Both the position numbers and the translations under genes were made by a program. A DNA stretch of 64,000 bases, taken from contig NC_090343.1 of the NCBI RefSeq assembly GCF_035084215.1, positions 22,444,001 to 22,508,000 of the forward strand, in the 5' to 3' direction. A model generated the notes under the pieces. That model was not told the DNA's origin. It was given only the letters and a program-made list of their open reading frames with translations, and made no database searches. The DNA is from Heptranchias perlo (lineage: Eukaryota). Position 1 is the first letter of the stretch, and every line of letters starts with the position of its first letter. Below, one piece after another: positions 39,565-48,092 of the stretch.

Positions 39565-40115
39565 TTAAAAAGCCCCTACTTCTGTAGCCCAGAAGTGTTT
39601 TCCAATCTTTACAGCTTGTATTGGAGGTCGGGCTGCAGCAGCTGGCAATAGAGGAAGAGGATCAATGGAAAATGGGAACTGTATGGCTGACAGAGAAGAA
39701 ACTGGGAATATTGAAGGTGGTATATGTGCAGCATTTGCCATCATGGGGACAACACAACCTGTAGGGGACACTTTCTTTAACTGTTCGAGATGGATACTGC
39801 TGAGCATTGACTCCTTGTGATGACTTTGTTCTGCATGAGGAAAGCCGCCTGCGAGAACTTCAGCACTAAAATGAGATAAAGAGGTCAGCGCAGGCTGATG
39901 GGGATACCCTGCACTCCAGAGCTGATGGCTCGTCTCAACAGTCACAACTTCCCTCTGCGATGCACATGTGTTTAAATGTGACACCAGGCGAGCCTTCAAA
40001 GGATCAGAATGGTCTAGTCCTTCAGTCACACTGAGATATCTGGCAACTTCAGATAAGCATTCCCGAAATCCCAGGATCCGGTAATCTGTGGCAAATGCCT
40101 GAGTCTCAAAATAAC
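39565..40115 (-). CDS. HEY1-like: HEY-like exon 5 (Orange domain and C-terminus ...[11 protein letters not shown])
   Basis: taatag|[56 protein letters not shown]; contains track ORF 39565..40029. Confidence 0.95.
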
Positions 40116-46400: not shown

Positions 46401-48092
46401 GGAGGTTGACTAACAGAGTTCTGCTCCGTGCAGCATGAAACCCAAGCAGTGTGAGACTGACTTCTCCAGGAGGTTTCACACCAGTGAGCCCTGAGATCAG
46501 GTTGGGTCGTAACTCTAGAGTATAATCTTGCAGGGCAAGGTTTCCGGTGTGGAGCCTCACTACAGGTTGCAAAATTAGGGCTCCAGGGTTGCAGCCCTCT
46601 CTTCACTATTGCACTCACTGCCACGAAGGCTTCACGCATGGAGCAAAGCCCCACAAAATACCTCCCACATTACAACCTTAGCAACAATTCAAATTGGAAA
46701 ACACTCGCTAACATTAAAGTTGCAGTATAAATATATCTTTTGGATATGATAGCTGGGGTCGGGCCCTTTATTCCCCAGTTCACACCTTTAAGGAACCAAC
46801 TTCACTGCTCAAAAACACTCAAAATTATGCTCACCTTTTCCGCTACTTGTATGTAGGATTTTTAAATGATCAACCGTCATTTGTAGTATTTCAGCTTTTT
46901 CCAGTTTTGTCGATCCCTGCAAAACGAGTGAACATATTGTGGCTGTTAGACAAGACGTTTCGGTCCCAGACAACGAATGCAACCACATTAACCTATGCAA
47001 CCAGATTTTTTCTTCAACATTTCCTCAGATTATTTTAAACTTGCTTTTCTCAACAATCAATACTAAAACAAAAGCAAAATGCTGCGGATGCTGGAAATCT
47101 GAAATAAAAACAGAAAATGCTGGAGAAGCTCAGTAAGAGAGGCAGCATCTGTGGAGAAAGAAACAGAGTCAATGTTTCAAGTTGAAGAACTGCAAGATGT
47201 TAAAAGAGCTAATGTTTTTGAGCAAGTACAGAGCCAGGGGAAAAGGGGGGCGGGAGAGAGAACAAAAGGGAAGGTATGTGATATGGTAGAGGACACAAGT
47301 GATTAAATGACAAAAAGGATGAATGTGCAAGGTAAGGAGTGTGGTAATGGGACAGGTTAAGAAATGAAAGATTGATCAGGAGTAGCTATGAATGGCAGCA
47401 GCAGAACCATTACCAGCACTAGACCACCGAAAAATGGGAGCAGTAGTTATGATCTGAAGTTACTGAAATCAATGTTGAGTTCGGAAGGTTGTAAAGTGCC
47501 TCATGAGGTGCTGTTCCTCGAATCAATAATAAAATCTGCACCGAGTGTATGGCTACCACAATGTATCCTGCTTAGAACTGTACAGTAAGGTTAAGTCCTA
47601 CTTGTTTCTCGTAGGCACTGGGAACCAGTCGGCGAAGTTCCGACAAACTGTTGTTAATCCGATCTCTGCGACGTTTCTCAACGATCTGCAATTAAACGAA
47701 AGGCCAATTTTAGTCAAGTTTACAAAGTTACCTTCCCGCTATTGCAGACAGGAAGCGAAAAAATGCAGATTGTTCTTCGGGAAAAAAATAAACGTACTCC
47801 TCGTCTTTTCTTCCTTGCCTGGTTCTGGGAGAAAGTCGATGGTAACACAGACTTCGAGTCTGCTGCCTTCATATTCCTATTTAAAATAAGATTGATATTT
47901 CCTTTCAATCAGATTGTTAAATAATGTAGTCTTTTGATCATGATCCGCCACTAACTATGGGGTATCTCAATAACTACAAGGTAAATTACAGTTCGGGGGT
48001 TAATGAATAAAGAAATAATTCACGGTTTACCCATTTTCTTCTTCAACATCTAATTCACTGTCCGAGGAGCTGAATTCCAAAGATCTCTTCAT
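39565..48092 (-). CDS. HEY1-like: HEY-family bHLH-Orange transcriptional repressor (HEY1-like, divergent), 5 coding exons, 285 aa
   Basis: join(48092-48031,47876-47798,47685-47602,46916-46835,40115-39565). All introns are GT-AG, phases are consistent, 858 nt total. Protein: [21 protein letters not shown]...[57 protein letters not shown]...Orange [13 protein letters not shown]...C-term [11 protein letters not shown]. The basic-region Gly and the TE(I/V)GAF tail are HEY hallmarks. Confidence 0.95.
41064..41118. repeat. 20-bp tandem repeat (AAGGCAATTGAGAAGAGGAG, about 2.7 copies)
   Basis: Directly visible. Confidence 0.85.
41475..41960 (-). mobile_element. Old CR1 3' fragment in HEY-like intron 4
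   Basis: CATAGAAATCACAGCACACAAGGAGGCTATTCAGTCC end and degenerate ORF2 tail. Confidence 0.7.
42437..42802 (+). mobile_element. L2 LINE 3' end
   Basis: [14 protein letters not shown], same tail as the 27845 copy; other short copies at about 49625-49878 (+), 18540-18695 (-), 32290-32680 (+) and 56895-57260 (-). Confidence 0.85.
43371..43436. repeat. (TA)n microsatellite
   Basis: Directly visible, one interruption. Confidence 0.95.
45874..46320 (-). mobile_element. Non-LTR retrotransposon 3' end (CR1-group, distinct family)
   Basis: [23 protein letters not shown]...WNSL...[13 protein letters not shown]2 C-terminus; AATAAA and A-rich tail. Confidence 0.75.
46835..46916 (-). CDS. HEY1-like: HEY-like exon 4 ([28 protein letters not shown])
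   Basis: ttgcag|GGA ... AAAG|gtgagc; bHLH helix 2. Confidence 0.95.
47066..47520 (-). mobile_element. Second Penelope-like family, 3' fragment in HEY-like intron 3
   Basis: Minus strand encodes [22 protein letters not shown], typical of the Penelope GIY-YIG C-terminus, followed by the tail ...CAGCATTTTCTGTTTTTATTTCAGATTTCCAGCATCCGCAG; shorter relatives at about 23430-23495 and 26835-26955. Confidence 0.65.
47602..47685 (-). CDS. HEY1-like: HEY-like exon 3 ([28 protein letters not shown])
   Basis: 84-nt exon, ttgcag|ATC ... CAA|gtagga; bHLH basic region and helix 1. Confidence 0.95.
47798..47876 (-). CDS. HEY1-like: HEY-like exon 2 ([26 protein letters not shown])
   Basis: Acceptor aaatag|G, donor GGA|gtacgt; start of the basic region. 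Confidence 0.92.
48031..48092 (-). CDS. HEY1-like: HEY-like exon 1 ([21 protein letters not shown])
   Basis: ATG at 48092; resembles the HEY1 N-terminus [11 protein letters not shown]; donor GG|gtaaac. Confidence 0.9.

Follow-up and report, generated by a model that had tools for sequence, protein, structure and literature searches.

A HEY gene beside PPDPF in cartilaginous fishes is likely the fourth member of the vertebrate HEY quartet

In the shark Heptranchias perlo, an intact HEY gene lies on the minus strand at positions 48092-39565 of a 64,000-nucleotide (nt) stretch of contig NC_090343.1 (positions 22,444,001 to 22,508,000), here called the window. Family papers count three vertebrate HEY genes (PMC3396596 among them). 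We propose, at a probability of roughly 0.87, that the window gene, called fourth HEY below, has been conserved across sharks, rays and chimaeras; that it is likely the fourth copy to come from the two rounds of vertebrate genome duplication (2R), a sister of HEY1 likely lost in the bony-vertebrate ancestor; and that it is predicted to encode a Notch-induced transcriptional repressor, as the other three do. The jawed-vertebrate ancestor likely had four HEY genes, of which bony vertebrates lost one. The proposal is built on the structure of the gene, separate HEY1 and HEYL genes in H. perlo, a clade that spans the chondrichthyans, linkage to PPDPF, and placement of the skate orthologue on chromosome 21. 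Synteny carries the case for a fourth ohnologue, and the tree alone is insufficient to prove ohnology.

Gene structure and product

The gene has five coding exons and four GT-AG introns of 154, 112, 685 and 6719 nt, in that order, and its 858 nt of coding sequence comprise 285 codons and a stop. Coding exon 1 (48031-48092, minus strand like the others; 62 nt, phase 2) opens with the ATG at 48092, exon 2 (47798-47876; 79 nt) ends within the first half of the basic region and has the HEY-type glycine, exon 3 (47602-47685; 84 nt) encodes the basic region and helix 1 (Pfam HLH, E 1.3e-8), and exon 4 (46835-46916; 82 nt) encodes the loop and helix 2 (Pfam HLH, E 3.7e-5). The coding part of exon 5 (39565-40115) holds the Orange domain (Pfam Hairy_orange, E 2.2e-13), a divergent proline/serine-rich region, the tail and the stop, and is followed by a likely 3' untranslated region of at least 1.2 kb (38300-39564, minus strand); a single contig of run X5, whose type was guessed, spans 38300-40113. 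The spliced product is identical to P0001, RefSeq XP_067856574.1, named 'HEY1-like' in H. perlo. An earlier note on this DNA, made from its sequence alone, had described an intact five-exon HEY gene, and this was borne out. The intron phases, 2-0-0-1, match the HEY-family pattern (PMC3396596).

Contigs from four of four sequencing runs (guessed to be RNA; at most three samples from two studies) break at 40113, two bases within exon 5 (the GT there may be assigned to either side), and extend 78, 83, 134 and 334 letters beyond that point. The breaks at the exon 5 acceptor fit splicing of intron 4, the joints themselves not being displayed. Pieces from runs X1 and X2 had zero differences from the window. 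Intron 4 is rich in high-copy repeats.

The protein has a bHLH (basic helix-loop-helix) domain followed by an Orange domain, as judged by the Pfam HLH and Hairy_orange matches, and its basic region aligns a glycine, G47, with the proline of HES proteins, the replacement that marks HEY proteins off from HES proteins (PMC1950541). It terminates in W-A-TEVGAF, so that the terminal TE(I/V)GAF after W is present, and the tetrapeptide YRPW (YXXW) is missing, the protein reading KHFW there. The earlier note had taken YRPW to have become KHFW; YRPW is indeed gone, but the alignment gives a two-residue deletion plus substitutions (GKPYRPW to GKHFW). Since some accepted members go without it, namely teleost forms and shark HEYL with its QRSW, YRPW is not strictly defining for the subfamily. 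Several altered YRPW forms are known from teleost HEYL (PMC3396596).

Compared with H. perlo HEY1, fourth HEY likewise has five exons, and the two proteins are identical at 52 of 57 bHLH and 37 of 46 Orange positions. They differ in that fourth HEY is on another chromosome, is identical at only 163 of 279 positions overall, has a long stem in the tree, was found only in chondrichthyans, lacks YRPW, and has TEVGAF rather than TEIGAF and K rather than R in the basic region. Its N-terminus is shorter, as claimed earlier, but only slightly, by 7 residues against HEY1 (basic region from 41 versus 48) and 2 against HEYL. The claim that SAYEKQ is an unusual substitution failed, H. perlo HEY1 having SAYEKQ as well. 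With HEYL and HEY2 the gene shares domain order and exon phases; HEYL is likewise without YRPW (QRSW in H. perlo P0271, and also lacking in P0402), and HEY2 has TEVGAF in most rows, as does fourth HEY. Two of the four shark HEY genes, HEYL and fourth HEY, have thus changed YRPW.

HEY paralogues and distribution

Three HEY loci were found in H. perlo, on contigs of 55,114,208 nt (the window gene), 142,684,034 nt (HEY1; P0230, XP_067832196.1) and 45,031,497 nt (HEYL; P0271). In the trees described below, P0230 occupies the H. perlo place in the HEY1 clade and P0271 that in the HEYL clade; the window gene occupies neither. H. perlo carries both HEY1 and HEYL elsewhere, which rules out orthology of the window gene to either. 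The earlier note had called for a search for separate HEY loci, which turned up HEY1 and HEYL on other chromosomes, and had named one outcome against itself, that the gene be the sole HEY1 or HEYL orthologue at that locus; when looked for, this was not what was found. Among chondrichthyans, HEY2 turned up in Pristiophorus, Leucoraja, Rhinoraja and Callorhinchus, and both Callorhinchus and Leucoraja have it in addition to fourth HEY. In a side observation, two bat HEY1 models (P0181, P0191) carry Pfam PF10246, which we take to be the MRPS28 family, as would fit models that read through at the HEY1 locus.

When exon 5 and the whole protein were used as queries, only chondrichthyan proteins outranked HEY1 and HEY2 (among the best 120 of 127 and the best 120 of 1258 matches, respectively); these top matches span several shark orders as well as rays, skates and the chimaera Callorhinchus. 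When 1.84 billion representatives were searched, the sole new clade member among the best 150 matches was a short fragment resembling the zebra shark protein. We then scored 455 HEY-like proteins against profiles of the four clades, the fourth-HEY profile including nine of these rows by construction. Thirty-eight scored highest with the fourth-HEY clade, 36 of them by at least 30 bits. Every named protein among the 36 was chondrichthyan, and the unnamed ones resembled skate or carpet-shark rows; the remaining two were distant proteins with margins below 4 bits. No bony-vertebrate orthologue was present among the 455 relatives, which were drawn from lists of the highest-ranking matches, where a very divergent one may have been missed. 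Teleost 'HEY1-like' proteins (Megalops, Takifugu) were considered as orthologues and rejected, as they nest within HEY1 in the 48-row tree. RefSeq labels fourth HEY as HEY1-like in sharks and HEY2-like in two skates.

Synteny

The earlier note placed the gene next to PPDPF, and PPDPF (XP_067856573.1) does lie 15 kb downstream on the same strand. The shark PPDPF cluster has 23 members, 15 of them listed; for 13 of these 15, PPDPF and fourth HEY were on contigs of equal size in the same species, and the two misses were on scaffolds of 30 and 160 kb. Accession numbers of the two proteins are consecutive in six species, and the sawfish (Pristis) model P0011 fuses them.

In human, PPDPF belongs to the genes of 20q13.33, as do EEF1A2, STMN3 and TPD52L2 (PMC7839675). 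In paralogon 11 of Lamb 2021, as tabulated for seven bony vertebrates, HEY2 occupies quadruplicate A, HEYL B and HEY1 D, and slot C is blank (table S1A; PMC8040251), in keeping with the earlier statement that the fourth paralogon segment has no HEY gene. Quadruplicate C carries STMN3, TPD52L2, EEF1A2 and KCNQ2, and its STMN3 lies on LG18 in gar and on chromosome 20 in both chicken and human; the paralogon branches as ((A,B),(C,D)) (PMC8040251). In skate, fourth HEY (P0249) and PPDPF (P0524) share a 38,390,410-nt contig, exactly the end of Leri_21C in table 8 of the skate genome paper. Little skate LER21 corresponds to LOC18 and GGA20 and is the beta-column partner of LER4 (table 3; PMC10115646), and skate Hey1 is located on Leri_4C (data of the same paper). 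The skate orthologue is on the quadruplicate-C chromosome (gar LG18, chicken 20, human 20), the partner of LER4, and fourth HEY therefore fills the empty slot. The chance of a stray duplicate landing on LER21 is about 2% (38.4 of 2,190.7 Mb, or 1.8%; one of 40 chromosomes).

Phylogenetic analysis

In the full tree (48 rows, 293 columns, LG+C20 PMSF), fourth HEY formed a clade of nine rows, Callorhinchus included, with support 100/100. HEY1 of sharks, bony fishes and tetrapods was recovered at 92/88, excluding this clade, HEY2 at 100/99 with the chondrichthyan HEY2 rows inside, and HEYL at 97/96. HEY2 and HEYL grouped together (97/91) as the other first-round pair. Against invertebrate Hey, fourth HEY nested among the vertebrate genes at 100/100 in this tree and 100/99 in the trimmed one. 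The lamprey and hagfish rows were long branches and gave no help in placing the clade.

The trimmed tree of 34 rows was obtained by dropping 14 long or redundant ones: Petromyzon, Myxine and Capitella; fourth HEY of Amblyraja, Hemiscyllium and Scyliorhinus; HEY1 of Takifugu, one Megalops, Erpetoichthys and Alligator; HEY2 of Misgurnus and Ambystoma; and two HEYL. Here fourth HEY was the sister of HEY1 (94/85), that is, of the D copy and apart from A plus B, and its position agrees with the one predicted for slot C. The maximum-likelihood tree for which the earlier note had asked thus gives sisterhood to HEY1 when trimmed and an open position with all 48 rows. In approximately unbiased (AU) tests, grouping with shark HEY2 (p 7.7e-7) or shark HEYL (p 1.1e-7) was rejected.

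At the level of consensus sites, nine are common to fourth HEY and both HEY1 groups, shark and bony, against HEY2 and HEYL. At four others both HEY1 groups differ from fourth HEY, which matches HEY2 or HEYL; among these is K44, where HEY2, HEYL and the outgroups agree with fourth HEY. The gene matches bony HEY1 only at four sites and shark HEY1 only at two. On these comparisons, the protein data show a close tie to HEY1 and lean toward a split before the gnathostome crown, short of proof.

Origin of the gene

Several points weigh against a fourth 2R copy. All four HEY genes were not seen together in any single species, and HEY2 was not seen in H. perlo. Absence from bony vertebrates rests on the lists of highest-ranking matches and one curated table. 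The PPDPF linkage counts leave out the chimaera Callorhinchus, and the chromosome was identified in skate and carried over to H. perlo through the shared PPDPF neighbour, the sole other neighbour gene found in the window by Pfam and short-motif scans. Besides the open position of the clade in the full tree, HEY1 monophyly falls to 81/81 in the trimmed one, AU tests of sisterhood with all HEYL (p 0.052) or all HEY2 (p 0.053) are borderline, and union with shark HEY1 is not rejected (p 0.275; p 0.414, with a log-likelihood just 1.5 lower). The stem of fourth HEY is long (0.53-0.69) and may draw the clade outwards.

It is this last union that gives room to a different origin, in which an intron-keeping duplicate of HEY1 arose in the chondrichthyan stem, once bony vertebrates had branched off, moved beside PPDPF and evolved fast, or in which a fourth copy was partly overwritten by shark HEY1. 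The purely chondrichthyan distribution would fit such an origin, as would the SAYEKQ that H. perlo HEY1 and fourth HEY have in common and the two consensus sites shared with shark HEY1 alone; were this the true account, bony vertebrates would have lost nothing. However, the duplicate would have had to land on the sole chromosome paralogous to that of HEY1, LER21, and both free trees put fourth HEY outside HEY1. The sites point the same way: at the four matches to bony HEY1, fourth HEY keeps the bony state against shark HEY1, and at four more, K44 included, both HEY1 groups agree on a state missing from fourth HEY. Synteny makes an early shark-lineage copy of HEY1 unlikely, and we regard this origin, overwriting included, as quite improbable.

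Hardly credible is the reading that a loose name hides what is simply shark HEY1, HEY2 or HEYL. The RefSeq names invite it, and the next ranks of the exon-5 search were mostly HEY2 proteins; yet H. perlo HEY1 and HEYL are separate and group with their bony orthologues, so that orthology to either is refuted, and the chondrichthyan HEY2 rows sit firmly in HEY2, with Callorhinchus and Leucoraja having both genes. A fourth 2R copy is thus the preferred origin. The suggestion of the earlier note, a fourth ohnologue lost in mammals, finds support in the slot and the tree, but the loss likely extends to all bony vertebrates.

Comparable cases are known. Chondrichthyans retain nineteen 2R ohnologues, wnt6b-type examples among them, that bony vertebrates have lost (Marletaz et al. 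2023, PMC10115646), and in beta segments gene loss is heavier and evolution faster (PMC10115646). Fourth HEY is like these ohnologues in being a beta-segment copy, in its faster evolution and in its differential loss.

Proposed function

HEY1 requires R50, R54 and R62 for DNA binding (PMC3355086), and all three are kept in fourth HEY, as R42, R46 and R54 in the alignment. Repression by HEY proteins runs through N-CoR, mSin3A and SIRT1, which attach to the bHLH domain; TLE is not bound by YRPW, and repression survives deletion of the tail (PMC1950541). Given these precedents, fourth HEY is likely a Notch-induced E-box repressor of the ordinary kind, in part redundant with HEY1. Notch, via RBPJ, would induce the gene at its promoter; the protein would dimerise through its bHLH and Orange domains, the dimer would bind class B E-boxes, and repression would proceed through bHLH-bound N-CoR/mSin3A-HDAC, without TLE. 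YGTGGGAA is an RBPJ/CSL motif, and a candidate site of this type, CGTGGGAA, lies at 48177-48184 (minus strand), 85 nt upstream of the ATG, as a putative Notch input. Against it, YGTGGGAA matches the window 8 times where 4.0 are expected, so that the CGTGGGAA site is within chance and serves as a lead only.

The earlier note had also raised altered co-repressor recruitment, for which no support was found: because YRPW neither binds TLE nor is needed for repression, its loss need not change co-repressor use. A switch of co-repressor is probably not what the altered tail means, the tail of shark HEYL (QRSW) also being altered; it may instead mirror the quicker pace at which a beta-subgenome copy evolves. 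Published accounts describe the YRPW-TE(I/V)GAF tail as one whose role is unknown (PMC1950541, PMC3355086).

The tail of fourth HEY has its own consensus, [KQ][HR][FL]W-x-T[EA]VG[AT]F, kept from chimaera to rays, and residues 159-285 are identical to the chimaera orthologue at 82 of 127 positions, against 41 of 122 for H. perlo HEY1. That the new tail and C-terminal half are so well preserved from shark to chimaera weighs against pure drift. One may ask, then, whether the fourth ohnologue is no longer a plain repressor, its new tail and C-terminal half bringing in a different partner or modulating HEY1/HES1 dimers. The conserved motif, the closeness of 159-285 to the chimaera orthologue rather than to the shark's own HEY1, and the unexplained role of the HEY tail would speak for this, but both domains, bHLH and Orange, are near-canonical, tail deletion leaves repression intact, HEYL also does without YRPW, and skate divergence and tail-less ray models point to relaxed constraint. 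We think it doubtful. With the odds similarly against it, one can speculate that fourth HEY was kept in cartilaginous fishes for more than 400 million years because its conserved new tail and C-terminal half acquired a partner, or a role in development (e.g., in the fin, along one axis of which the likely skate orthologue is enriched), that HEY1, HEY2 and HEYL lack; if true, the gene would be a natural test of what the unexplained tail does.

Among the batoid models, P0011 (Pristis) is the one fused to PPDPF and two are truncated ahead of the tail; P0011, P0012 (Narcine) and P0245 (Hypanus) have no tail. The skate copies (P0015/P0249/P0121) are strongly diverged, with a branch of 0.55 and a repeat-like N-terminal extension. 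Taken together, the diverged skate copies and tail-less ray models suggest relaxed constraint, and the gene seems less stable in batoids, be it through decay or through annotation error.

In the skate genome data, a comparison of anterior and posterior pectoral fin lists 'Hey2-2' (LE18423) with a base mean of 439, a log2 change of -1.44 and an adjusted p of 8e-5. The LE18423 id belongs to a run of ids that takes in Ppdpf, Eef1a2, Gdf5 and Matn4 along with further chromosome-20-type genes (30 of 95 rows). From this id block and the RefSeq HEY2-like name, skate 'Hey2-2' is likely fourth HEY.

Neighbouring features of the window

The PPDPF gene (minus strand; coding exons 24527-24581, 23118-23195, 21943-22042 and 21683-21761) encodes 103 amino acids (aa) with a Pfam PF15060 match (E 1e-8) and is 65-68% identical to PPDPF of turtle, alligator, platypus and panda. 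The PPDPF search yielded no PPDPFL sequence. It did yield extra PPDPF-like copies on other chromosomes: P0443 and P0544 (Mobula) and P0423 (Scyliorhinus torazame). Two that were compared are 84-86% identical to window PPDPF, one of them altered in the conserved serine run; the extra copies may be lineage-specific duplicates or else retrocopies.

The interval that separates the HEY gene from PPDPF holds a pair of tRNA-Glu(CTC) genes (26693-26766, plus strand; 27004-27076, minus strand) that are inverted relative to each other and have identical bodies; the pair lies about 0.2 kb upstream of where the PPDPF promoter likely is. Presumably a tRNA-Glu(CTC) gene also lies just downstream of human HEY2, an assumption that a literature search did not confirm; if it is right, the linkage of HEY and tRNA may predate the duplications.

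Elsewhere, a Pfam scan of 48200-64000 matched none of 129 stop-to-stop frames of at least 45 aa and so gave no further neighbour gene, and in 1-21500 one of 150 scanned frames (of 197) matched, a weak Myb/SANT-like DNA-binding domain at 5282-5614 (minus strand; E 1.4e-4) that is probably a transposon remnant. Of the 101 frames in 27100-39500, the scan covered one, a reverse-transcriptase frame. Short-motif scans of the window for kinase, EEF1A, KCNQ, stathmin and TPD52 exons gave nothing convincing. Reverse-transcriptase remnants of the long interspersed element type were seen at 14788-16763, 28313-28918, 29619-32200 and 63114-63575, some frames exceeding 300 aa, with a Pfam RVT_1 match at 29619-30689.

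Significance

No description of a fourth HEY gene was found in the literature searched, including the whale shark, catshark and skate genome papers, most subscription papers lying outside the search. Neither Marletaz et al. 2023, in its main text, nor its preprint mentions HEY, the list of 68 differential ohnologues lying outside the search. The gene is annotated but misnamed, and likely undescribed, and ohnologues retained in sharks are already a known class; fourth HEY is a good added case of this class of event rather than a new principle. Under its HEY1-like and HEY2-like labels it can be mistaken for HEY1 or HEY2 in developmental studies of sharks and skates. Its tail changed independently and so gives something against which to compare the unexplained YRPW-TE(I/V)GAF motif. 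In sum, as the likely fourth copy, fourth HEY would complete the HEY quartet.

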